Of a DNA stretch of 64,000 nt, positions 7,071-55,553 are shown piece by piece. The DNA is from Candidatus Micrarchaeia archaeon (GTDB taxonomy: Archaea; Micrarchaeota; Micrarchaeia; Anstonellales; J096). The stretch covers positions 11,333 to 75,332 of the forward strand of contig JBGQMY010000003.1 in NCBI GenBank assembly GCA_041500865.1, given 5' to 3'. Position 1 is the first letter of the stretch. Each line of letters opens with the position of its first letter. Made by a program: the position numbers and the translations under genes. Under the pieces are notes generated by a model. The model was not told where the DNA came from. It did not search any database and worked only from the letters and a program-made list of their open reading frames with translations.

Positions 7071-8174
7071 TCATACGGCTAATTCCTTGGCAAATAGCCT
7101 ATTGAATCTTTCCACGACTCTTTTCCTGAAATTATAGCTATTTGCAAATCTGGCATAAGCAAGCCAGCCTTCCAGGCTTTTCACTATTTCTTCCCTGTTC
7201 ATCTCTCCTTTATCGCATTTCCGTTTGAACATGTCAAGGCGCTCCCAGATTCTTCTGGCATTGCTCTTCTTGAGAAGCCGGTACCCATGAAAAATCCTGA
7301 AGCCAAGAAATGCTATGCCCCGTTCCAATGGAATAATGCTGGACTTTTCAGGATGGAGCCTTATCTTGAGCCGGTATGCCAGAAACTCGCTTATTTCAGC
7401 GTTCCACATTTCAAGCATTTTCCTGTCCCTGTGCAGAATCACGAAATCATCCACATAGCGGATGTAATATCTGGCCCCAAGCCGCTCCTTTGCAAAATGG
7501 TCGAATCCGTTCAGGTATAGATTGGCAAAGAATTGCGAGGTCAGGTTTCCAAGGGGCATCCCTTTCCCATGAACTTCAGCTTTGTGGTTTGCCAATATCA
7601 TTCTTACCAATTGCATAATATCCGGATCCTTTATTTTACGGCTAATCATCTCCAATAGGATTTCATGTTCAACTGTCGCAAAATAATGCAGAATGTCCGC
7701 CTTGAGGGCATATCCGCAGCAAACGGATTCTTCATCGCTAGGCTCTTTTTCTGCTTTTGGCTTGCAGAAAGAGACCGCGCGCATGAACCGCTCCAGTCTC
7801 CGTATCGCATTATGCGTTCCCTTGCCTTTCCTGTTGGCAAATGAGTCAAAGATGAAATCCTTTTCAAAAATGGGCATTATGACGTTGCATAATGCATGGT
7901 GCACAACGCGGTCCCTGAAATGGGACGCGCTTATTTTTCTGGTCTTTGGGTCCCTTACGAGGAATACAGTTGGCGGGCGAGGCGAATAGGCAAATGCCTT
8001 CAGCTCGGATTCCAATTGCCTGAGATTATTTTCAAGATTGGATTCGAACTCAATTACATAATCCTTCAGCGTTTTCCTTTTTCTGGCTTTCTGAAATGCA
8101 AGCTTAAGGTTTTCATAGGAGCAAACCTGCGGATAAAGATGCCTGTAGGATTTCATGGGTTTCGCCAAGCGCAC
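7071..8174 (-). CDS. DGR-type reverse transcriptase
   Basis: PKTRKI, FRDRVVHHAL, RKGKGTH, ADILHYF, GMPLGNLTSQFFANLYL and YVDD motifs; directly downstream of a TR. Confidence 0.95.
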   Translation of the reverse strand: MRLAKPMKSYRHLYPQVCSYENLKLAFQKARKRKTLKDYVIEFESNLENNLRQLESELKAFAYSPRPPTVFLVRDPKTRKISASHFRDRVVHHALCNVIMPIFEKDFIFDSFANRKGKGTHNAIRRLERFMRAVSFCKPKAEKEPSDEESVCCGYALKADILHYFATVEHEILLEMISRKIKDPDIMQLVRMILANHKAEVHGKGMPLGNLTSQFFANLYLNGFDHFAKERLGARYYIRYVDDFVILHRDRKMLEMWNAEISEFLAYRLKIRLHPEKSSIIPLERGIAFLGFRIFHGYRLLKKSNARRIWERLDMFKRKCDKGEMNREEIVKSLEGWLAYARFANSYNFRKRVVERFNRLFAKELAV

Positions 8175-8185
8175 AGATAAATGCC

Positions 8186-8445
8186 CCTAGGGTGCAAGCC
8201 CAAGTCATTCCGAACGCATTGGACGGCCTGTAGTTCGCGTTGACGTTCTGCCTGTTGTTGCCGTTGTTGTTGACGTTGCGGACCAGAAGGCCTCAAGAGT
8301 AACCCGTCTGCCACAATGGCACTTTCGTGCCAACACCGCCGCTTCACGCTTTCAATCCATGATTTACTCAATGTCGCGGCTGAATCCCATGTCTGGCTTT
8401 AACCAGCACTGCAGACAGGTGTGTGGCCTAGGCTTGCACCCTAGG
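8186..8445 (-). ncRNA. Putative structured DGR template RNA containing the TR
   Basis: 15-bp inverted repeat 8186-8200/8431-8445, 10-bp helix 8302-8311/8411-8420, GAAA-tetraloop hairpin 8317-8332. Confidence 0.7.
8204..8292 (-). repeat. DGR template repeat (TR)
   Basis: 89 nt, nine AAC triplets; aligns without gaps to 8710-8798. Confidence 0.97.
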
Positions 8446-8471
8446 AATAGGGAAAAGGATGGAAAGCTTAT

Positions 8472-9383
8472 TTAAAGCGCTTTCCCTACCGCATCCAGGA
8501 ATTCCCTGATTGGCGCTACGATCTGGGCGTCGATTATGCCAGGCATCCTGCCAACAGCGCTTACAGCCCTATTATATGCGGCTTTCAGCTCATCAGCCGA
8601 GATGCCGGGCACTTTGATAATCGTCTCTTTTTCAGCCGGTTTTCCTGACTGAACATTAGAGGCAAGAAGCGCCTGGATTTTTTCGGTGTCCCCTTCGGGG
8701 ACTTCCAACGCCACCCCGAACGCACCGGACGGCCCGAAGTACGCGTAGACGCCCTGCCTGCCGTAGCCGAGGTCGTCGACGACGCGGACCAGAAGGCCCA
8801 CATATGAAGAACCATTCAGCCTCCAAAGATATCTTGCATCCGGGCTTTGCGGCACCTTGTCTCCATGCGGAACGCCTGTTTCCTTATGCGGCATGTACAA
8901 GCCATCAGGACCTGGGAATTCTGGAACCGGTATCAGCCTGTCTTTTGAAATGTCCAAAACCATTGAATCTCCGTCTTTCTGGAAATCTTTTGAGGTTAGA
9001 CCCAGTGCCACAAGCGCAACGTTCTTTTCGCCCTTATAATCCCCTGTTGTCGGCAAAACTATCCTTGAACCGTCTCCTGCGGAAAAGACTATCTCCTTTC
9101 CCAGTCTAACGCCTGGCTTTTCATAGGCGATTGAGGCGTCAACAGCGAAAGGCGTCATTGGAACCAAGCTTCTCCATGTCGCTCCAACGTTAAGCGCAAC
9201 ATCCGCTGTGTTATGGGATATGACTAGGCAATTGGTTCCATGCACATTGTTGAATTCCTCAACTAAAGGATGGGCATCAAAAAGCTTTGTTGTTCCGCTG
9301 TTCCTTAGAATCAGTATGTTCTTCTTTTGTCCGTTAGCCTCTAACTTTATCAGTTCCTTTCCAGCAATTTGGATTTGTGACAT
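8472..9383 (-). CDS. DGR target (variable) protein with internal VR
   Basis: Codons 196-225 (GLLVRVVDDLGYGRQGVYAYFGPSGAFGVA) are the VR. Confidence 0.92.
   Translation of the reverse strand: MSQIQIAGKELIKLEANGQKKNILILRNSGTTKLFDAHPLVEEFNNVHGTNCLVISHNTADVALNVGATWRSLVPMTPFAVDASIAYEKPGVRLGKEIVFSAGDGSRIVLPTTGDYKGEKNVALVALGLTSKDFQKDGDSMVLDISKDRLIPVPEFPGPDGLYMPHKETGVPHGDKVPQSPDARYLWRLNGSSYVGLLVRVVDDLGYGRQGVYAYFGPSGAFGVALEVPEGDTEKIQALLASNVQSGKPAEKETIIKVPGISADELKAAYNRAVSAVGRMPGIIDAQIVAPIREFLDAVGKAL
8688..8702 (-). promoter_or_regulatory. DGR target-recognition hairpin (GAA triloop)
   Basis: GTCCCC-GAA-GGGGAC, 7 nt downstream of the VR end. Confidence 0.8.
8710..8798 (-). repeat. DGR variable repeat (VR)
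   Basis: 20 mismatches to TR over 89 nt, all at TR adenines. Confidence 0.97.
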
Positions 9384-19379: not shown

Positions 19380-19952
19380 TTATTCCTTGGCGCCGACCTG
19401 CTTCAGGAGATTGACTATTTCGGCGTTCCCATCGGATTCAGCATATATAAGTATAGTGTAACCGTTTTCGTCCTTTGCGTTGACGTCCGCGCCTTTGTCT
19501 ATCAGCAGGCTAACTACATCAGTATGCTTCTTTACTACAGCCCACATGAGCGCGGTGTAACCGTGATTGGTTTTTGCGTTGACGTCCGCGCCTTTGTCTA
19601 TCAGCAGCTTGGTGATATTAGTGTTCCCACCATATGCAGCCTGCATGAGCGCGGTGTAACCGTTTTCGTCCTTTGTGTTAACGTCCGCGCCTTTGTCTAT
19701 CAGCAGGCTAACTACATCATTATTCCCAAAAGGTGCGGCATACATGAGCGCGGTCATGCCGGAACGATCTGTTGCGTTGACGTCCGCGCCTTTGTTGATT
19801 AAACTTTTCGCAAGGGCAGTATCGTTATGTTGAGTAGCGTTCAGTAACTCTGCAGTGTAATTCTCCTGCCCTGTCGGTTGATTGTTTGTCTGTCCCAAGC
19901 ACCCGAAAAGCAGTACTAATCCAAGAACGATTGCCAATATCGCAGTTCTCAT
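19380..19952 (-). CDS. Ankyrin-repeat lipoprotein-like protein
   Basis: Leader ending LLFGC; four near-identical 33-aa repeats (LLIDKGADVNAK..GYTALM). Confidence 0.9.
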   Translation of the reverse strand: MRTAILAIVLGLVLLFGCLGQTNNQPTGQENYTAELLNATQHNDTALAKSLINKGADVNATDRSGMTALMYAAPFGNNDVVSLLIDKGADVNTKDENGYTALMQAAYGGNTNITKLLIDKGADVNAKTNHGYTALMWAVVKKHTDVVSLLIDKGADVNAKDENGYTILIYAESDGNAEIVNLLKQVGAKE

Positions 19953-24019: not shown

Positions 24020-24583
24020 TCACAAACCGGCGCATTCCGCAAAATCCAGGATAAACCGCTTATGCCCGATGCCGATTAAGCTTTCAAGCGGCTTTATTGC
24101 ATCCATGATTGCCACAACGCCCCTGTATCCGCGCGTTATCATATGACGCCTGGTTGTTTGCCAGTATTCTCTTCTTGCATTACCTTTGAAATTCGCGCCT
24201 TTGCTTAGCAGCAGCGCGAACGTTCTTGCATTCCCATGCGCAAAGGCCAGCATGAGCGCGGTTATGCCCTGGTCGTTTCTTGCATTGATTTTTGCGCCCC
24301 TTTCCAGCAGCATGGAAACCGTTTCCGTCCTTCCGTTGGATGAGGCGAACATCAGCGGGGTCGTGCCTGCAATGCTCCTTGACTCAATGCCGATTCCGGC
24401 CTTCAGCAGCCTCATTATCCTTTTGGTTTTGCCTGTCCTTGCAGATTCTCCCAGAATGTTTTCCAGCCGCTTTACCTTTGCATTTTTGGATTCCGCGTTT
24501 TCTTGGCCCAGCTTATGGGCGGCAAGAAAAGACGCAATTGACCTTGCTGCGCGGATTGCGCGCCCCGTTGCATTTATCTGCAT
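24020..24583 (-). CDS. Ankyrin-repeat protein
   Basis: GTTPLMFAS, GITALMLA; C-terminal FILDFAECAGL. Confidence 0.85.
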   Translation of the reverse strand: MQINATGRAIRAARSIASFLAAHKLGQENAESKNAKVKRLENILGESARTGKTKRIMRLLKAGIGIESRSIAGTTPLMFASSNGRTETVSMLLERGAKINARNDQGITALMLAFAHGNARTFALLLSKGANFKGNARREYWQTTRRHMITRGYRGVVAIMDAIKPLESLIGIGHKRFILDFAECAGL

Positions 24584-24615
24584 GGCTCAACTGTTCGCAA
24601 AAAGAGGTTAAAACA

Positions 24616-25536
24616 TTATCCCTTCGTTATGGGTATGCAGCCGTCCTTCGTTACGACGACCGTTTCCTCGAACTGCGCAATCGGCTGTCCATTGGCTTCT
24701 GCAAGCACCGGATACGCAATCAGCACCCTGGCCTTCAGCATCTCTTTTATGCCTGAGTTGAGGAGCAGCCTTGACTGGAATTCCTTGTGCAGCCACCTTT
24801 CGCAGAACGGCATTGTCTTGTAGTTTTCAATGATGTACTCAAGCATCTTCCTGCTCTGCCTCATCCTTATGTTGCCCGGTATGAAAAGGCTGTAAATCTC
24901 CACGCGGTCCGTCTCCTTTATGTAGCCCGCGCCCTCCTTCGTGGTCACGAAGGGCTCTATGGCGAACACGTCTCCTTCCTGGAACTCGTACATCTCGTTG
25001 GCAGGGATGTTGGGAATCTCGATGCCTGCATGGAGGTTCATCCACTCTATCTTGTGTCCTGCGAGGTTGGAAATCGGCTTGCAGCCGTTGTCCTTAATCG
25101 TTTCGTATATGATTTTGCTGACGTCATTGACAGGCACGCCGGGTTTTACCGCCTTTATGGCGTTCTCAAGCGCGTCCCTTGACGCCTTCATCAGCGAACC
25201 GTATTTGTTGCCGAGGTCAACCGTCACGGACGTGTCCGTTATCGCCTGCCCTTTCACGAGCCCGAAATCAACCTTAACAAGGCCGTCTTCCGGTATCTCA
25301 GCCTCATCGTTCGCGGACGGCGTGTAGTGCGCCGCCAATTCGTTTGTGGATATGTTGACCGGGAATGCGGGCTTCGCGCCCTCCTTCTCCATCATCTGCT
25401 CAAGCGTTTCAGCTATGTCAAAGAGCCTCTCGCCGACTATGACAAGCTGCTCCGCGTCCTTCTTGAGCTTCGCAGTGAGCTTGCCTGCCTCCTTGAGGTC
25501 GCCAAGCTCTAGGTTTTCCATAAACGAACGTTCCAA
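24616..25536 (-). CDS. map: Methionine aminopeptidase type II
   Basis: PAFPVNIS, AAHYTP, NLAGH, AIEPF. Confidence 0.95.
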   Translation of the reverse strand: MERSFMENLELGDLKEAGKLTAKLKKDAEQLVIVGERLFDIAETLEQMMEKEGAKPAFPVNISTNELAAHYTPSANDEAEIPEDGLVKVDFGLVKGQAITDTSVTVDLGNKYGSLMKASRDALENAIKAVKPGVPVNDVSKIIYETIKDNGCKPISNLAGHKIEWMNLHAGIEIPNIPANEMYEFQEGDVFAIEPFVTTKEGAGYIKETDRVEIYSLFIPGNIRMRQSRKMLEYIIENYKTMPFCERWLHKEFQSRLLLNSGIKEMLKARVLIAYPVLAEANGQPIAQFEETVVVTKDGCIPITKG

Positions 25537-25568
25537 TCAAAGCTTTTTTAATGGCAGGCGGTTGCCGT

Positions 25569-26222
25569 CTACTGGCCTATGCAGCGCCTGAAATCCAGCA
25601 GGAATGCGGCAAATGCCTCTTTGCCAAACGGCTTTTGCAGGGATTCCCAAAAATCCAGGAGCACAATGTTGTTCCTTTTTGTATTTAATTCCGCCAGGCC
25701 GCGGGCATTGCGGCCGTCATCGTTCCTTGTGTCCAAATCAGCGCCATGCATGAGCAGGAGCCTGGCCGTTTCAATGCGGCCATGTATTGAAGTGTACATG
25801 AGCAGGGTGTATTCTCCATGGCTCCTTGCATTTACGTCAGCCCCTTTTTCCAGCAGGAGCCTGGCGATGGCAGTATTTCCTGAACACGATGCATACACGA
25901 GCGCGGTATAGCCGCAAATGCCCCTGATGTTCACGTCTGTTCCCTTTTCTATAAGGAATCTGGCTACTTCCGTGCATCCGCAATCCAATGCCCACAAGAG
26001 AGCGGTTTGGCCGTGCTTGAATAAGATATTTGGGTTTGCGCCGGCTTCAACCAGCCGCGCGGCATTTGCAATATCTTCGGGCGCGTTGTTAAATGTCAAT
26101 GCGGCCATTTCCCTGTTTAGGCTTTCAATCCTGACCGCATTGTCTGGCTCAAGCTTGCATTTATCTAATTGAATTGGCATTTTCGCATTTTGCGCATGTC
26201 CCTGCATCTGCTCCTGGGCCAT
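25569..26222 (-). CDS. Ankyrin-repeat protein
   Basis: GQTALLWA, GYTALVYA; C-terminal FLLDFRRCIGQ. Confidence 0.85.
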   Translation of the reverse strand: MAQEQMQGHAQNAKMPIQLDKCKLEPDNAVRIESLNREMAALTFNNAPEDIANAARLVEAGANPNILFKHGQTALLWALDCGCTEVARFLIEKGTDVNIRGICGYTALVYASCSGNTAIARLLLEKGADVNARSHGEYTLLMYTSIHGRIETARLLLMHGADLDTRNDDGRNARGLAELNTKRNNIVLLDFWESLQKPFGKEAFAAFLLDFRRCIGQ

Positions 26223-26296
26223 GGGCTTATTGTGCAAGAACAAGGTTAATAATGATACTGGTTGGATATTCGGGCCCGAGGATTTAAATCAAGGGG

Positions 26297-42303: not shown

Positions 42304-43065
42304 CTATTCCTGAAGCCAGATGGGCTTTCCGTCCTTCATATCTATGGACGCGGCCTGGCTTGCAAAAAGATTAATCATGTCCGGGCTGTTGATTTGCCTG
42401 GCATAGCCAAGCGCATCCATGCCTGCCTTGTCTATTGCCTTGGCATCAGCGCCCTTGCTTACCAGGAAAGCGCATGTTTCGCTGAATCCCCTCATTGCTG
42501 CCCAGATGAGCGCGGTCCTGCCCCATACAGTATCACTTGCGTTTATGCTTGCGCCATTTTCAATAAGCAGGCTGCATACGCCAATCCTGCCCAGGTATGC
42601 CGCCCACATGAGCGGGGTCCTGCCTGACTTGTCTGTTGCATTGACGCTTGCGCCTTTCTTTATCAGGAGTGCACAGGTGCTGGCTCTCCCACGGTATGCT
42701 GATTCCATGAGCGGGGTGATGCCATTCACGTCAGTCGTTTCCATGTCCGCGCCATTTTCCAGCAGGAATGCGCATATCCTTTTGTTGCCTGCGCCCGCAG
42801 ACCCCATGAGCGCGGTTTTGCCGCATTCGCTCTTTGCATTGACGTCCGCGCCAGCCTTGATGAGCCGCAGGATTTCTTCTGCATTTTTCGAGCCCTGCCA
42901 TTGGAATTTTGCGTTCCATGCCGCATTGAGGAGTTTTTTGTCCAGTTCCTCCTGCAGGTCAGTGCGGAGCTTGCTTGGTTTGTCTGGCTCAGGCTTCATC
43001 TTTTTGTCAAAAGGCGGCTTTCTGTTAGTTGCACTGCGCCTTTGTTTCTCCGTTTTCTGCGCCAT
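42304..43065 (-). CDS. Ankyrin-repeat protein
   Basis: Five GxTPLMxAA-type repeats; basic N-terminal extension. Confidence 0.9.
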   Translation of the reverse strand: MAQKTEKQRRSATNRKPPFDKKMKPEPDKPSKLRTDLQEELDKKLLNAAWNAKFQWQGSKNAEEILRLIKAGADVNAKSECGKTALMGSAGAGNKRICAFLLENGADMETTDVNGITPLMESAYRGRASTCALLIKKGASVNATDKSGRTPLMWAAYLGRIGVCSLLIENGASINASDTVWGRTALIWAAMRGFSETCAFLVSKGADAKAIDKAGMDALGYARQINSPDMINLFASQAASIDMKDGKPIWLQE

Positions 43066-43097
43066 GTGTCCGTTTATGTTAGAAAAAGATTAAAAGG

Positions 43098-43847
43098 TTA
43101 TGCGGGGCCCGGCGACTGCCGCAAGCTGGCAATATAGGGCTTTCTTTTGGCCGGACCCATGGACGCGGCGCGCCTAAGCAGGTCAACCGTGCCTGTATGC
43201 TCGTTTTCCTGTGCCCATACGTATGCGGTCATGCCCCCATTGTCCTTTATGCTGATGTCTGCGCCTTTTTCAAGCAGCAGCATTGCCGTTTCCCTGTATC
43301 CGATTTCAGCGGCATATGTAAGCGCGGTCCTGCCGAAGTTGTCCCTTGCATCCACGTTTGCGCCTTTCCCAATCAGCAATGCGCAAATGCCGGCCTGTCC
43401 GCCAAATGCCGCATGCATCAGTGCAGTCCTTTCAAGGCTGTCTGTTGCGTCCACGATTGCGCCTTTCCCAATCAGCAGGGCGCATATGGCCATCAGCCCT
43501 GACGATGCGGCGTGCATGAGGGCAGTTCCGCCGACGTTGTCCTTTGCATCGATGGCTGCCGCGTTGTCAATCAGCATTATGCATGTCTCGGCATGCCTCC
43601 GCTGTGCGGAAAGCATCAGCGCGGTCATGCCCCTGCCGTCTACTGCATCTGCCTGCGCGCCCTGTTCCAGCAGCATTTTGGCCTTGCCTGTCTCGCCGTC
43701 CATGGCCGCCTGCAGAAGTTCCAAGCCCAGCCTTTTCTGCCGCCTGTTGGCGGGCCTCTTGCACCCATCCGCCTCTGGCTTGAAAAATGCCCTTTCCGGC
43801 TTTTTTTCGCTTTTTGGGATTCCGAATTTACCCAATGTGAGGAGCAT
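43098..43847 (-). CDS. Ankyrin-repeat protein
   Basis: Five GxTALMHAA-type repeats; basic N-terminal extension. Confidence 0.9.
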   Translation of the reverse strand: MLLTLGKFGIPKSEKKPERAFFKPEADGCKRPANRRQKRLGLELLQAAMDGETGKAKMLLEQGAQADAVDGRGMTALMLSAQRRHAETCIMLIDNAAAIDAKDNVGGTALMHAASSGLMAICALLIGKGAIVDATDSLERTALMHAAFGGQAGICALLIGKGANVDARDNFGRTALTYAAEIGYRETAMLLLEKGADISIKDNGGMTAYVWAQENEHTGTVDLLRRAASMGPAKRKPYIASLRQSPGPA

Positions 43848-43928
43848 GTGTCTGTTTATGCATAAAAAGGATTAAAAGGTTATGCCGGGCCTGGCGGTTG
43901 CCGCAAGCTGGCAAGATAGGACTTTCTT

Positions 43929-45002
43929 TTATCTGGTTGCCCACTTATAGATTTCAACGCCCAGGAGAAACTGAGGCGTTGCGCCGCTGCTATCTATCGC
44001 GTTTTCGTCCGCCCCATTTTTCACAAGGAATTTGTATACTTTCCTGTTCATTCCAAAAACGGTTTCTGCGGCATAGTGCAGTGCTGTCCTGCCTTCCTTG
44101 TCGCCCATATCAATAAACTTTTTCACATTCCCGCCGGCTTCAGCATATTTTTGTATGAGGAGGTTGCAGATTAAAGTCCTGCCTGGCAACGCAGGAATGG
44201 CTGCGGCATGGTGCAGGGATGTCCGGCCGTCATTGCTTTTTGCGGCAATCAGCTTCTTTATGTCCCCTCCGGATTTTGCGTATTCTTTTATAAGAAACGC
44301 GCAGGTTTTTATGCTTCCGTAAGCTGCGGCATACATGAGCGGGGTGTTGCCGCAGTTGTCCGCTGCGTTCAGGTCGGCGCCATTTTCAACCAGAATCTCG
44401 CAGGTTTCTGTGTACCCGTAGCATGTTGATGCTGCAGTTATGAGCGCGGTTTCACCGTATTCGTTTCTCGCATTCACGTCAGCGCCGTTATCAATCAGCA
44501 GATTGCATGTCTCGGGATTACGGGCTGCAGCATATATGAGCGGAGTGTTGCCGAACTTGTCCCTTGCGTCCACATCCGCCCCGGCTTTCAGAAAAGTCTC
44601 AATCCCTGCAGAGTCACAAAAAAATGTGTTGGTTATAGCCTCATCAAGAAGCATGCTGTCCAACCGCGCCTGTTCCATCTTGGAAATCGCCGGTTTCGCA
44701 TCTGCTGCGGCCTTCCTTTGGCTTTTGTTTTTCTTGGAATAGCAATTCAGGACTTTTATGCAGTTTGCCAATTTTCTCTGCGCCATTTCCAAGCTAATGT
44801 CATTCCAGCAGCCTCCGCACGCCAGCGCGGCTGCGAGAATTCCGGGCATTACCCACGCCGGAATGCGGATTCCGATTTTTTTATTGGCGGCTGTTGGGTT
44901 ATCGGCTGCGTCCTTTGCCTTTCTCGTTATCATGCATATTTGATTTTCGCTGTTTTTTGCGCCATCCGCTGCCTTTGCCAAAAACGGCTTTTCTGCTGCC
45001 AT
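43929..45002 (-). CDS. Ankyrin-repeat protein with hydrophobic segment ending in Cys
   Basis: GILAAALACGGC; GNTPLIYAA-type repeats. Confidence 0.88.
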   Translation of the reverse strand: MAAEKPFLAKAADGAKNSENQICMITRKAKDAADNPTAANKKIGIRIPAWVMPGILAAALACGGCWNDISLEMAQRKLANCIKVLNCYSKKNKSQRKAAADAKPAISKMEQARLDSMLLDEAITNTFFCDSAGIETFLKAGADVDARDKFGNTPLIYAAARNPETCNLLIDNGADVNARNEYGETALITAASTCYGYTETCEILVENGADLNAADNCGNTPLMYAAAYGSIKTCAFLIKEYAKSGGDIKKLIAAKSNDGRTSLHHAAAIPALPGRTLICNLLIQKYAEAGGNVKKFIDMGDKEGRTALHYAAETVFGMNRKVYKFLVKNGADENAIDSSGATPQFLLGVEIYKWATR

Positions 45003-52029: not shown

Positions 52030-52734
52030 TTGATTATGGAACAGAGGCAGAAGCCCATCCGCGGAGCCATGCAAAAGGCGAAATCGCTGTTTTCAGGCAA
52101 GGCGAAGCCCGAAGGCGCGAGAAGGTTGAACGAGAAAGAGCAGAAGGAGTTGAATGACAGGCTCTTTGCCGCGATTTGGGATTATAAAAAATTATTAACT
52201 GACGAAATGCAAATCGAAACCCATATTGTAGCGCGTTATACTTCAAGGTCGCGCATCAGGAGGCTGTTGAGGCTTGGCGCAGACGTGGATGCAAAGGACA
52301 GCGGCGGCGAGACCCCGCTCACGCGGGCCGCATGGAAAGGCGATATGGACATTTGCAAAATCCTGATTGAAAACGGGGCAAACCTGGAGGCAAAAGACGC
52401 GTATTGGGGAGATACGGCATTGATGCTTGCTGCCCGCAATGGCAATCAGTATTTGGTTAAATACCTTGTTTCGCGCGGGGCTGATGTGAACGCAAGGAAC
52501 AATAATGGCGAAACGCCTTTGGTTCTGGCTGTTGGCGGCAGCACGACAAAGGAATGGAAGACTGTGCGTGTCCTTCTTCAGAGCGGCGCAAACCAGCTTG
52601 GAGCCGCTTTTATGCATGCCAGATTTGACGTGGCTGAATTGCTGAAAAATGCAATGATGAATCAGCTTGAAAATGTAATCGGAAAAGAAAGCTTCGCGCT
52701 GTTCATGCGCTCGTTCAGGGAATGCACTGCCTGA
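52030..52734 (+). CDS. Ankyrin-repeat protein
   Basis: GETPL/GDTALM repeats; C-terminal FMRSFRECTA; paralog of 53754-54488. Confidence 0.88.
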   Translation: MIMEQRQKPIRGAMQKAKSLFSGKAKPEGARRLNEKEQKELNDRLFAAIWDYKKLLTDEMQIETHIVARYTSRSRIRRLLRLGADVDAKDSGGETPLTRAAWKGDMDICKILIENGANLEAKDAYWGDTALMLAARNGNQYLVKYLVSRGADVNARNNNGETPLVLAVGGSTTKEWKTVRVLLQSGANQLGAAFMHARFDVAELLKNAMMNQLENVIGKESFALFMRSFRECTA

Positions 52735-52737
52735 TGT

Positions 52738-53664
52738 TCATTCCCCTTCTGTCATGCCCGCCTTAAGCGGCAGGCCCTGCCTCGGGACAAGCGTTTGGGC
52801 GTAATTGGAAAACAGCATTACGGCGGCGATGCCTGCCAGCAGGACCGCCAAGCCAGGCATTACTCCCATGCCGAGCACGCTCCATTTGCCCAGCGCAGTT
52901 TTCATCACCGATTCGTGGAACAGGAAGAGCGCGAACGTGGATTTCCCTGCAATGGAAAATGCGCTGCGGACGGCTTTGGAGCCGAAGTCCGGGACAAGCG
53001 AGAAAAGGAAAAACAATGCAAACGGCACTGCCATCACAGGATAGGCGATTGAAAGCAGCAATGGCGACAAAAGCCAAACGTCCCTCCTGCCGTGCGCCAG
53101 CGCGATGCCAAAGCAGAATTCAGCCATGAAGAACAGCGGCGAAAACGACGTTAGCGAACCGTCCATCAAGCGGATTGCGAGCGAAACGATTACGGCAAGC
53201 AGCAGGAAGGCAGGGAACCTCTTTGTCAGCAGGTTCAGGTAAGGATAGAGTATATACAGCCCTATCAGCGGCACCACGAACCATGATGGGCTGATGAGCG
53301 TGTATTGCACGGCACTGTCAATCCAGTTCATGAACGAGAAATGGAGCAGGATGTCGCCAATGGCCCCGGAATATACCTGTGTGCCGAAAAGAATGGCGAC
53401 AAGCAGCAAGGCAGGATAATAAAGCGAGGATATCTTCAGCCAGCGCCTGAAAATCCATCCCAAGTCAAACGAAACAAGGCCCGGATAGCGCATGGCAAGC
53501 GCGAAGCCGCTTATGATGAAGAACAGCGAGGCGCCGATGAACCCGTAAGGCCTCAGCCCGGAATCAAGCGTGAACTCGTATGCCACGTGAAAACCGATTA
53601 TGAGGAGTATGGCGACAACCCTGGCGAAATCCAGCCACACTATCCTGTTATCGGGATTGGGCAT
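52738..53664 (-). CDS. Acyltransferase family 3 (OafA-like)
   Basis: RIVWLDFARVVAILLIIGFH, LFFIISGF; multi-TM. Confidence 0.88.
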   Translation of the reverse strand: MPNPDNRIVWLDFARVVAILLIIGFHVAYEFTLDSGLRPYGFIGASLFFIISGFALAMRYPGLVSFDLGWIFRRWLKISSLYYPALLLVAILFGTQVYSGAIGDILLHFSFMNWIDSAVQYTLISPSWFVVPLIGLYILYPYLNLLTKRFPAFLLLAVIVSLAIRLMDGSLTSFSPLFFMAEFCFGIALAHGRRDVWLLSPLLLSIAYPVMAVPFALFFLFSLVPDFGSKAVRSAFSIAGKSTFALFLFHESVMKTALGKWSVLGMGVMPGLAVLLAGIAAVMLFSNYAQTLVPRQGLPLKAGMTEGE

Positions 53665-53753
53665 TGCACATATATGCGGGATAACGGTTTTATCCCTTTC
53701 CTTTTTCCAAGTGATAAAAAAGAGCCGGATTTTTAACCCCTTTTGAGCATAAT

Positions 53754-54488
53754 TTGATTATGAAGCAGAAGGAAAGGCAGGAAAGCCATGTATTCCTGCA
53801 AAAGTCGAAATCGCTGTTTTCGCGCAAGGCAAAGCCAGAATCAGCAAGAAAGCTAAACGAGAAAGAACAAAAGGATTTGAATGACATGCTCTTTGCAGTG
53901 ATTTCAAAGCATAAAAAATTTACAGAGGATGCCACCTCTTATGAGCCTGCCCAAATCCACATTGTATCATATCCTATATCAATTATCCGAATCAAGAGGC
54001 TGCTTAAAGCCGGAGCGAATCTTGAAGCAAGGGACAATGAAGGCAGGACTCCGTTAATGTATGCTATATTTACTGAGCATATGGACATCTCCAAAATTCT
54101 TGTTGAAAATGGCGCAGAGATTGAGGCAAAGAACAATGACGATATGACAGCACTGATGTTTGCTGCAGCCTCAGGTAATCATAAGATAGCTAACTATTTA
54201 ATTTCGCGGGGGGCAGACGTAAATGCAAAAGATAGAAATGGTCATACCCCATTGGTTTTGGCTGTCCATAATGACTTTGTTAGATCTGGCAGCGGCCACA
54301 ACATCCTTAAAACCGCCAAGATCCTGATAAAGAACGGGGCCATAATAGGCCAGAATGCACTCATGTGCGCGGGTAGGGATAAAACGATTGAGTTTCTTAA
54401 AAAAGCAATGCTGGCCCAGCTCGAAAAACAGATGGGAAAACAAAATTTCTCGCTGTTTATGCAATCTTTTAAGGAATGCACTGCCTGA
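53754..54488 (+). CDS. Ankyrin-repeat protein
   Basis: GRTPLMYA repeats; C-terminal FMQSFKECTA. Confidence 0.88.
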   Translation: MIMKQKERQESHVFLQKSKSLFSRKAKPESARKLNEKEQKDLNDMLFAVISKHKKFTEDATSYEPAQIHIVSYPISIIRIKRLLKAGANLEARDNEGRTPLMYAIFTEHMDISKILVENGAEIEAKNNDDMTALMFAAASGNHKIANYLISRGADVNAKDRNGHTPLVLAVHNDFVRSGSGHNILKTAKILIKNGAIIGQNALMCAGRDKTIEFLKKAMLAQLEKQMGKQNFSLFMQSFKECTA

Positions 54489-54758: not shown

Positions 54759-55553
54759 TTATTGCCTCAGCAGTTTTTCAGCAGCGTCTAGTTGCTCTTT
54801 TGTACCCCTGACTACAAGCGTGCCGTCGTCCTCTCTTGTTACTGTCATTTGTGCGGGCTTTGCTTCAAGCGCCCGCGCCCCCTTCGGGGTCCCACCCAAC
54901 GACGCCACCCCGAGAAGCGCGGACGACCCGTTGTTGAGGTTGACGTTCCTCCTGAAGTAGTAGTCGAGGAAGTTGTAGCCGCGGGCAACAGGGCCGACCC
55001 TCCCGGAACCATCAACCCGCCACAGACGGCTGGCTTGTGGGTTGCGGGAACCAATTTCCTTTCCTGTCGGTATGCCATGCTTGCCATCAAGAGGATACCA
55101 ACCGTCCTTTTCCGGGAAGTTGGGAATAATATCAATAACGTTTGATCTTATCATAATCTCCTTGCCGTCAATTTCAAGCGAGTAGTCCGGATGCTCTGAA
55201 ACCAGGATGGCGTTCTTCTCGCTTCCGTAGTCTCCTATTGGGAATATCCAGCGCTCCCTTGTTTCCGGGTCTGTGTATACGATTGCCTTAAGCTCCTTGC
55301 TGAACATCTTGCTCCTGTTGAATTCAGTTCTAGGCTCGACGTATGCGGCCATCGTGCCTGTCCAGCACGGAAAAACCTCAACTATTGATTTATATCCATC
55401 TCCTGCAAACGCCTTTTCCATCTTTGCGTTTGAGGCGATTATCATTCCCGTCTCTGCGACCCTTTGGATTGCAACTTTGGCTGAAACGCCCTCTTTGTAG
55501 GGTATGAATGCCTTTAAGCCCTTTTCACTTGTCAGTTGGACTGTTCCTGCCAT
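54759..55553 (-). CDS. Paralog of the DGR target protein with VR-like region (54903-54995)
   Basis: Shares FPxxDGxY..GxPxG..LWR..GS..VG...R...R..V......S...GVA with 8472-9383; run of NNC codons; CCCC-GAA-GGGG hairpin at 54879-54889. Confidence 0.8.
   Translation of the reverse strand: MAGTVQLTSEKGLKAFIPYKEGVSAKVAIQRVAETGMIIASNAKMEKAFAGDGYKSIVEVFPCWTGTMAAYVEPRTEFNRSKMFSKELKAIVYTDPETRERWIFPIGDYGSEKNAILVSEHPDYSLEIDGKEIMIRSNVIDIIPNFPEKDGWYPLDGKHGIPTGKEIGSRNPQASRLWRVDGSGRVGPVARGYNFLDYYFRRNVNLNNGSSALLGVASLGGTPKGARALEAKPAQMTVTREDDGTLVVRGTKEQLDAAEKLLRQ

Follow-up and report, generated by a model that had tools for sequence, protein, structure and literature searches.

In nanoarchaeal diversity-generating retroelements (DGRs), the IMH reads TGGGGT where the IMH* reads TGGAAT, the GRA trinucleotide loops are highly constrained, and each hairpin lies inside its target gene, where protein-level and DNA-level selection both bear on it (Paul 2015, PMC4372165). 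In AvpA, the hairpin is found in a 46-residue extension (Handa 2016, PMC5006420). In BPP-1, a GC-rich hairpin/cruciform located after the VR is required for efficient homing; the structure of the stem counts whereas its sequence does not, the loop also counts, and the spacing can vary (from 4 to 34 bp among phage DGRs), with some activity retained when 6 bp are added (Guo 2011, PMC3240598).

The DGR of the window and its probable target-site signals

The window is the whole stretch of DNA that was analysed (64,000 nt). It carries a complete DGR, consisting of a target gene, a VR, a TR and an RT, whose features are located as follows.

8472..9383, minus strand: DGR target gene P0001, 303 aa (ORF and translation), with an internal VR and 71 codons after the hairpin
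8710..8798, minus strand: variable repeat VR1, 89 nt, the TR-homologous block (repeat family D12; gapped TR/VR alignment)
8708..8719, minus strand: IMH-like 12-mer TCGGGGTGGCGT, with core CGGGGTGGC, coding for (F)GVA
8688..8702, minus strand: hairpin GTCCCC-GAA-GGGGAC (GTCCCCGAAGGGGAC), 6-bp stem and 3-nt loop, coding for V228-P-E-G-D232
8204..8292, minus strand: template repeat TR, 89 nt, with the IMH* TCGGAATGAC as its 3' end (8213..8204) (repeat family D12; alignment)
7071..8174, minus strand: DGR reverse transcriptase P0003, 367 aa (RVT_1 at E 3.1e-17)

On the minus strand, the target gene P0001 is followed by a 179-nt gap, the 89-nt TR and the RT gene P0003. In the gapped alignment, VR1 and TR differ at 20 positions, 20/20 at TR adenines, with zero gaps over 89 nt. 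The DGR features present comprise A-specific TR/VR mismatches, an adjacent DGR-clade RT, an IMH at the VR 3' end that is unlike the IMH* of the TR, and an inverted repeat downstream of the VR that is missing after the TR.

The best solved relative of P0003 was 8ub7_A (E 7.4e-48), group II intron RTs being far weaker (5.7e-20). Its translation contains LGNLTSQ, and [I/L]GxxxSQ is a mark of DGR RTs. P0003 is the sole DGR-like RT of the assembly (1,043,478 bases, 92% completeness), the other RT, on contig C36, being of group II intron type. The latter region (L012:1-1146, minus strand, outside the window) holds a group II intron RT/maturase truncated by the contig end, which scored 294.5 bits with TIGR04416 against a cut-off of 300; a second DGR on C36 was considered and rejected on the basis of this type.

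No ORF was found between target, TR and RT, and the flanking ORFs gave no match to an Avd-type Pfam family; neighbouring genes of the DGR are PAC2, TRM5/TYW2 and rubrerythrin. These neighbours, the assembly size of 1.04 Mb at 92% completeness and the Candidatus Micrarchaeota names of related records agree in indicating a DPANN archaeon. P0001 itself matched no Pfam family, and its family matched no solved chain at E <= 1 in a profile search; 46 homologues were collected, some of them recorded as Candidatus Micrarchaeota. The AlphaFold2 model of P0001, obtained with an alignment termed A3, is of low confidence (mean pLDDT 50.4), below what a fold comparison requires. The gap between the target stop codon and the TR contains palindromic CCTAGG-containing repeats (CCTAGGGTGCAAGCCTAGG; 8420-8470, minus strand), part of which resembles CACCCTAGGGG, located directly after the TR.

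The first hairpin lies on the minus strand at 8702..8688 and is read V-P-E-G-D, exactly as the initial annotation had described it. Its stem consists of two reverse-complementary codon pairs (Val GTC with Asp GAC, and Pro CCC with Gly GGG), and its loop is a single codon, Glu GAA. The VR core CGGGGTGGC faces CGGAATGAC at the equivalent position of the TR, which gives CGGGGT for the IMH and CGGAAT for the IMH*. This contrast recurs in most of the other loci that carry a TR in cis, the exceptions being L096, where it is masked, and L069, which has CGAGGTG. The TR has no GAA hairpin downstream. As the VR lies within the coding sequence, the IMH and the hairpin are both translated, as the initial annotation had deduced in calling the homing signal dual-coded; that idea had already been printed in the same paper that describes GRA-triloop hairpins 3' of VRs as cis elements of archaeal DGRs, also invoked in that annotation (Paul 2015, PMC4372165).

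The 12-mer TCGGGGTGGCGT occurs twice in the 1.04 Mb assembly, once per hairpin site (the second being in the paralog described below) and, as had been claimed, in identical form. The hairpin core CCCCGAAGGGG has 3 copies, the third lying outside the window with no IMH-like motif beside it. A genome scan, proposed earlier as a means of finding further targets, returned none: the 11-mer TCGGGGTGGCG has 4 copies in the assembly, and a hairpin follows only the two known sites. Likewise, a protein profile of the target family found only P0001 and P0002 in the assembly.

Taken as an isolated 21-nt DNA strand, the first hairpin is the fold of minimum free energy (MFE; -5.7 kcal/mol, z -2.9). Neither hairpin is significant when folded with 46-49 nt of context, the first one having a z of -0.45 at 46 nt and no longer being the MFE structure. 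The MFE fold at 46-49 nt pairs TTCGGGG of the IMH with CCCCGAA of the 5' arm; this alternative was rejected because loci with a TR in cis and GCCGCC, GGCCGC or AGCCAC stems have no complement in the IMH.

We consider it very probable that this 12-mer and hairpin act in cis as the target-site signals of a DGR in a Micrarchaeota-type DPANN archaeon with a genome of roughly 1 Mb, and that the paralog is a target of the same family that relates to a different template. By analogy with BPP-1, the RT would copy the TR RNA into an adenine-mutagenised cDNA, which would then replace VR1; the IMH (CGGGGTGGC against CGGAATGAC in the TR) would mark the VR as recipient and set the 3' limit of the transfer, and the DNA hairpin (6-bp stem, 3-nt loop), placed 15 nt beyond the IMH GGGG, would raise homing efficiency.

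The DGRs of the DUSEL4 Nanoarchaeota (PMC4372165, PMC5006420) share with this locus the order target, TR, RT, the internal VR followed by a C-terminal extension, the GGGGT of the IMH where the IMH* has GGAAT, the coding of an xFGV-type strand by the IMH, and a trinucleotide-loop hairpin inside the target ORF, the GAA found at both sites of the window fitting GRA. They differ in host phylum (the records of relatives of the present locus are named Micrarchaeota), in the first base of the IMH (C here, T there, with the same G-to-A contrast) and in the loops, 5/13 loci with a TR in cis of the wider family having TTT/TCT or CAA instead of GRA. Compared with AvpA, their variable protein, which has a C-type lectin fold, the present target family lacks a match to any solved chain at the threshold given above, and the peptide encoded by the hairpin is conserved, whereas five disordered residues are predicted for AvpA (Handa 2016, PMC5006420). 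As in BPP-1 (Guo 2011, PMC3240598), a GC-rich inverted repeat directly borders the VR on its 3' side and is missing behind the TR, the stem stays paired while its sequence varies, and IMH and IMH* differ at few positions. BPP-1-type elements have a GC-rich stem of 7-10 bp (8 bp in BPP-1) and a 4-nt GRNA loop, against 6 bp and 3 nt here; the IMH measures 34-35 bp in BPP-1, against a fixed core of about 9-12 nt; and the BPP-1 element is positioned around the stop codon or beyond it, whereas all of the present one is translated. The function of the hairpin was shown experimentally in BPP-1 and is assigned by comparison here.

The case is sound and largely ordinary, the arrangement having already been described for related archaea, and the general understanding of DGRs is unchanged by it. 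It adds a little to what was known, namely the occurrence of the pattern in Micrarchaeota, the support from covariation and the existence of loops other than GRA. Within the collection of papers searched, no publication dealt with such hairpins in Micrarchaeota.

Distribution of the hairpin among homologues

Homologous DNA was gathered irrespective of the hairpin, from 9 metagenome loci, 16 genome loci and three regions of a same-genus genome (G211). Among the 401 genomes of the phylum that were searched, 74 were matched by the P0001 profile and 60 by P0002, and the best loci were taken. P0001 used as a lone query gave no match in the genome contigs and the alignment A2 was too diverse; the narrower alignment A3 succeeded. 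The Gly codon of the G-V motif was used as anchor, which yielded 71 unique sites, and TRs were detected with a gapped scorer that replaced an ungapped 109-nt window.

A TR in cis with A-specific mismatches was present at 13 loci (six P0001-type, six P0002-type and one, in genome G194, found via its RT), and in 13/13 a stem of 6 bp closing a loop of 3 nt lies 15-21 nt past the IMH GGGG, the pairing being imperfect in two cases (one mismatch in L013, a bulge in L086). Of the 13 loci, 12 are included in the count of stems over the 71 sites; among the sites without a TR in cis in the fetched flank, such stem-loops were seen in 18/59. In the six P0001-type and the six P0002-type loci, the hairpin stands after the VR and is missing after the TR. 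A perfect stem of at least 6 bp with a 3-nt loop was detected at 22/71 sites, compared with 8/636 control windows of the same genes. The loops of the loci with a TR in cis are GAA in 8/13, TTT or TCT in 3/13 and CAA in 2/13. A clear hairpin is lacking at roughly half of the 71 homologous sites, which may be relic paralogues.

Several observations were made on these loci in passing. The target family is present at least five times in genome G143, and stop codons interrupt several of these matches. An AT-rich stem, TTTTGGA-TAT-TCCAAAA, takes the place of the GC hairpin in L039, L031 and L030, while L024 and L029 are without it; a search with P0003 found no RT in this genome (90% complete), and its copies were therefore set aside as a test case. 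The RT match of G211 (L101, G211:C18:12265-13344) contains a single TAG; in G194, the RT was recovered in two pieces (L102/L103, G194:C71). The DGRs of G211 and G194 may be damaged, or the assemblies imperfect. The 3' flank of the TR (8160-8203, minus strand, in the window) carries a conserved motif close to GCTTGCAYYYTRG, found in 10/13 loci with a TR in cis (the window, L013, L022, L014, L038, L052, L073, L083, L088 and L086) and after none of the VRs. By the example of BPP-1, this motif may be part of the spacer of the DGR RNA that the RT requires for priming.

The paralogous gene and its hairpin

The second site of the window belongs to a gene located 46 kb from the RT, with the following features.

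54759..55553, minus strand: paralogous target-family gene P0002, 264 aa (BLASTP to P0001)
54915..54996, minus strand: VR-like segment of the paralog (alignment to the TRs of the sister genome and of the window)
54902..54913, minus strand: IMH-like 12-mer TCGGGGTGGCGT (sequence identity with the first site)
54877..54891, minus strand: weakened hairpin GACCCC-GAA-GGGGGC, whose stem runs from a 4-bp core through an A x G mismatch to one outer pair

BLASTP aligns P0002 with P0001 at 28% identity over 185 aa (E 2e-15), the alignment ending at GVA; orthologues of P0002 in the same genus share 60-65% identity with it. The gene immediately downstream encodes ankyrin repeats (53754-54488; Ank_2 at E 1.1e-37), and many such genes, with a repeat period of 99 nt (repeat families D1-D5), were noted in the window at 1-426, 19380-19952, 24020-26243, 42304-45002 and 52030-54488.

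The hairpin core of the paralog, CCCC-GAA-GGGG (CCCCGAAGGGG), is located at 54889..54879 on the minus strand and is coded as T-P-K-G in another frame than at the first site, again as initially reported, its loop not being codon-aligned. As an isolated 21-nt DNA it forms just the 4-bp core with mismatches (-5.1 kcal/mol, z -1.1). Relative to two same-genus orthologues, the paralog has gained 5 nt before and 1 nt after an invariant 17-mer, CCCCGAAGGGGGCGCGG; the orthologue peptide VEAPEGGAAVEAKP has become SLGGTPKGARALEAKP, and the distance between IMH and hairpin exceeds that of the orthologues by 5 nt. The out-of-frame reading is therefore due to these private indels of +5 and +1 nt, which also weaken the stem.

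The initial annotation took conservation across frames to mean selection at the DNA level. Such selection is upheld by codon choice and compensatory stem changes (see below), as well as by the 13/13 loci with a TR in cis; the cross-frame argument itself proved weak, because 23/31 homologous sites with a GC-rich triloop stem of at least 4 bp are codon-aligned alike, the paralog being the exception, and because the frame shift of the paralog arose from two indels, in a gene whose stem is weakened and which has no cognate template in the assembly. Moreover, the DNA of the paralog and its orthologues is 74% identical and the 17-mer is merely the fourth-longest invariant run of the three-way comparison, so that its survival fits selection without proving it.

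The VR-like segment was compared with candidate templates. Against the TR of the sister genome G211, of the type ending in ...GCTTTCGAATGACCC, it aligns over 83 columns with 10 mismatches, 8 of them at adenines, and 1 gap; against the TR of the window, it aligns over 59 columns with 21 mismatches, 11 of them at adenines. The G211 TR fits two targets, one in cis (20/20 mismatches at adenines) and one on a different contig (14/14). No cognate TR for the paralog was found in its own assembly, where the best non-self score was 37, against 124-126 for true pairs. Homing of the window TR into the paralog was examined as a candidate and rejected, in view of non-adenine differences from the TR between the shared GAACGTCAAC and the IMH. 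The paralog resembles remote DGR targets (Wu 2018, PMC5758913) by its distance from the RT and by its own IMH and hairpin, and the G211 TR resembles their templates in fitting two targets on different contigs. Unlike them, the paralog does not differ from the window TR by A-to-N changes alone: 10/21 mismatches are off adenines, and it is consequently not a remote target of the window DGR.

Four public sequencing runs were inspected as assembled Logan contigs. A 4,417-nt sediment contig (run X4, record 10) matches the VR of the paralog (54922-54996) with 9 differences and is taken to carry a TR of the cognate type, since its loose end equals the TR flank of the sister genome. Its depth (10.9) is like that of a co-occurring relative (10.1), pieces identical to the window being at 3.1-4.1. 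In runs X2-X4 there was no cover over 54793-54916, and in run X1 no variant was seen in the contigs, from which rare variants are dropped.

These comparisons lead us to regard the paralog as a target that has been orphaned, or that may be served by something unassembled, and as a derived copy that is probably decaying. Another template would have given rise to its VR, the DGR proper to it would be lost or unassembled, and its hairpin would have slipped out of frame through the two indels.

The alternative that retains most weight, although we regard it as unlikely, is that the paralog is still a live remote target whose out-of-frame hairpin is maintained by selection on DNA only, the source being an unassembled second DGR, that of a co-resident relative, or even that of the window. 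The intact IMH 12-mer, identical to that of VR1, and the unchanged 17-nt core argue for it, as do the service of two targets on separate contigs by the G211 TR and the presence of a contig with a cognate-type TR in one sediment run; in addition, a spacer longer by 6 bp left measurable homing in BPP-1 (Guo 2011, PMC3240598). Against it, the assembly offers no cognate TR and, besides P0003, only an RT of group II intron type; of the 6 stem pairs a 4-bp core is left, and the stem lies 5 nt further out; 2 mismatches off adenines and a gap separate the segment from the nearest known TR; the window TR is a poor fit; and the depth of the TR-bearing contig is that of the relative and not that of the window pieces.

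A related and rather improbable proposal is that the IMH and hairpin together form a label which, being pure DNA and frame-independent, would outlive its own retroelement, leaving the paralog addressable in trans by an unassembled second DGR or through capture by the resident one. If this were true, the signature of reverse-complementary codon pairs could serve to locate orphan or remote DGR targets in DPANN genomes devoid of a nearby template.

Covariation and codon choice in the stem

Several stem variants keep the pairing, such as GTCCCC/GGGGAC (VPEGD), GCCCCC/GGGGGC (APEGG), GCCGCC/GGCGGC (AASGG) and TCCCCC/GGGGGA (SPEGG), and further paired stems are AGCCAC/GTGGCT, GGCCGC/GCGGCC and GCCAGC/GCTGGC. 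These changes alter the encoded peptide, which is VPEGD, APEGG, ASEAG, AASGG, SPEGG or GRFAA. Over all 71 unselected sites, 68.1% of the pairing cells are paired, against 58.1% after shuffling (0/500 shuffles as high), and at the 12 sites with a TR in cis the proportion is 89.4% against 77.4% (reached by 0/500 shuffles), figures which, like those of the Fisher tests, overstate independence because the sequences are related. The covariation score over the 71 sites is 0.301, compared with 0.191 for shuffled sites and 0.115-0.245 for slid partners.

Codon choice points the same way. In the x-P-x-G-x sites, Pro is CCC in 21/25 and Gly is GGG in 24/25 cases, against 12% and 13% elsewhere in the same genes; Val is GTC in 13/13 and Asp is GAC in 15/15, against 17% and 35%. 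The IMH codons are fixed (GGG and GTG, each at 23/23 sites), while the codons of the spacer and downstream region vary for Val (GTG 4, GTA 5, GTT 6, GTC 1), Ala (GCA 8, GCG 9, GCC 1) and Ile (ATC 7, ATT 10). The suppression of synonymous variation that the initial annotation had suggested looking for in homologues is visible, with stem and IMH codons near-fixed between variable flanks.

Selection acts on these sites at the nucleotide level, and the sequence comparisons lend good support to the view that it is the hairpin as DNA that is selected. The same sequence would also fold as RNA, and covariation does not distinguish the two, which leaves room for a stem-loop acting in the target mRNA (as a pause, stability or translation signal) instead of as a DNA target-site element. 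We judge this very improbable: the hairpin tracks the TR in cis (12/12 against 18/59) and is missing after the TR; only Watson-Crick types and zero G-U pairs were counted at the 12 sites with a TR in cis, as expected if both DNA strands must pair; and the homologous element of BPP-1 works as DNA (Guo 2011, PMC3240598). Hardly credible, finally, is selection on the peptide E-V-P-E-G-D only (for example as a strand-to-helix junction), with the palindrome as a by-product devoid of nucleic-acid function, for although GVVAEVPEGDVAKI(E/Q)ALL is conserved among the 46 homologues (E227, V228 and D232 at 90% or more) and the low-confidence model places E-V-P-E-G-D between strand 223-228 and helix 230-242, the rarest synonymous codons are near-fixed in the stem while the flanks are free, paired non-synonymous changes preserve the stem and change the peptide, the paralog has the same DNA core with a different peptide, and the 12-13% background does not suggest a general fixation of Pro and Gly codons.

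The DNA target-site hairpin, as preferred here, provides a demonstration, from sequences only, that such an element constrains codon choice and even amino-acid pairs within a gene. It also provides an annotation signature for small archaeal genomes, namely an IMH core, a 15-nt gap and two reverse-complementary codon pairs flanking one codon.

In a subgroup of homologues (L064, L077 and L082), whose fetched flanks are without a TR in cis, a longer stem lies a few codons downstream and shows compensating changes (AATGTCGC/GCGACATT, AATGTTGC/GCAACATT and ATTGT/ACAAT).
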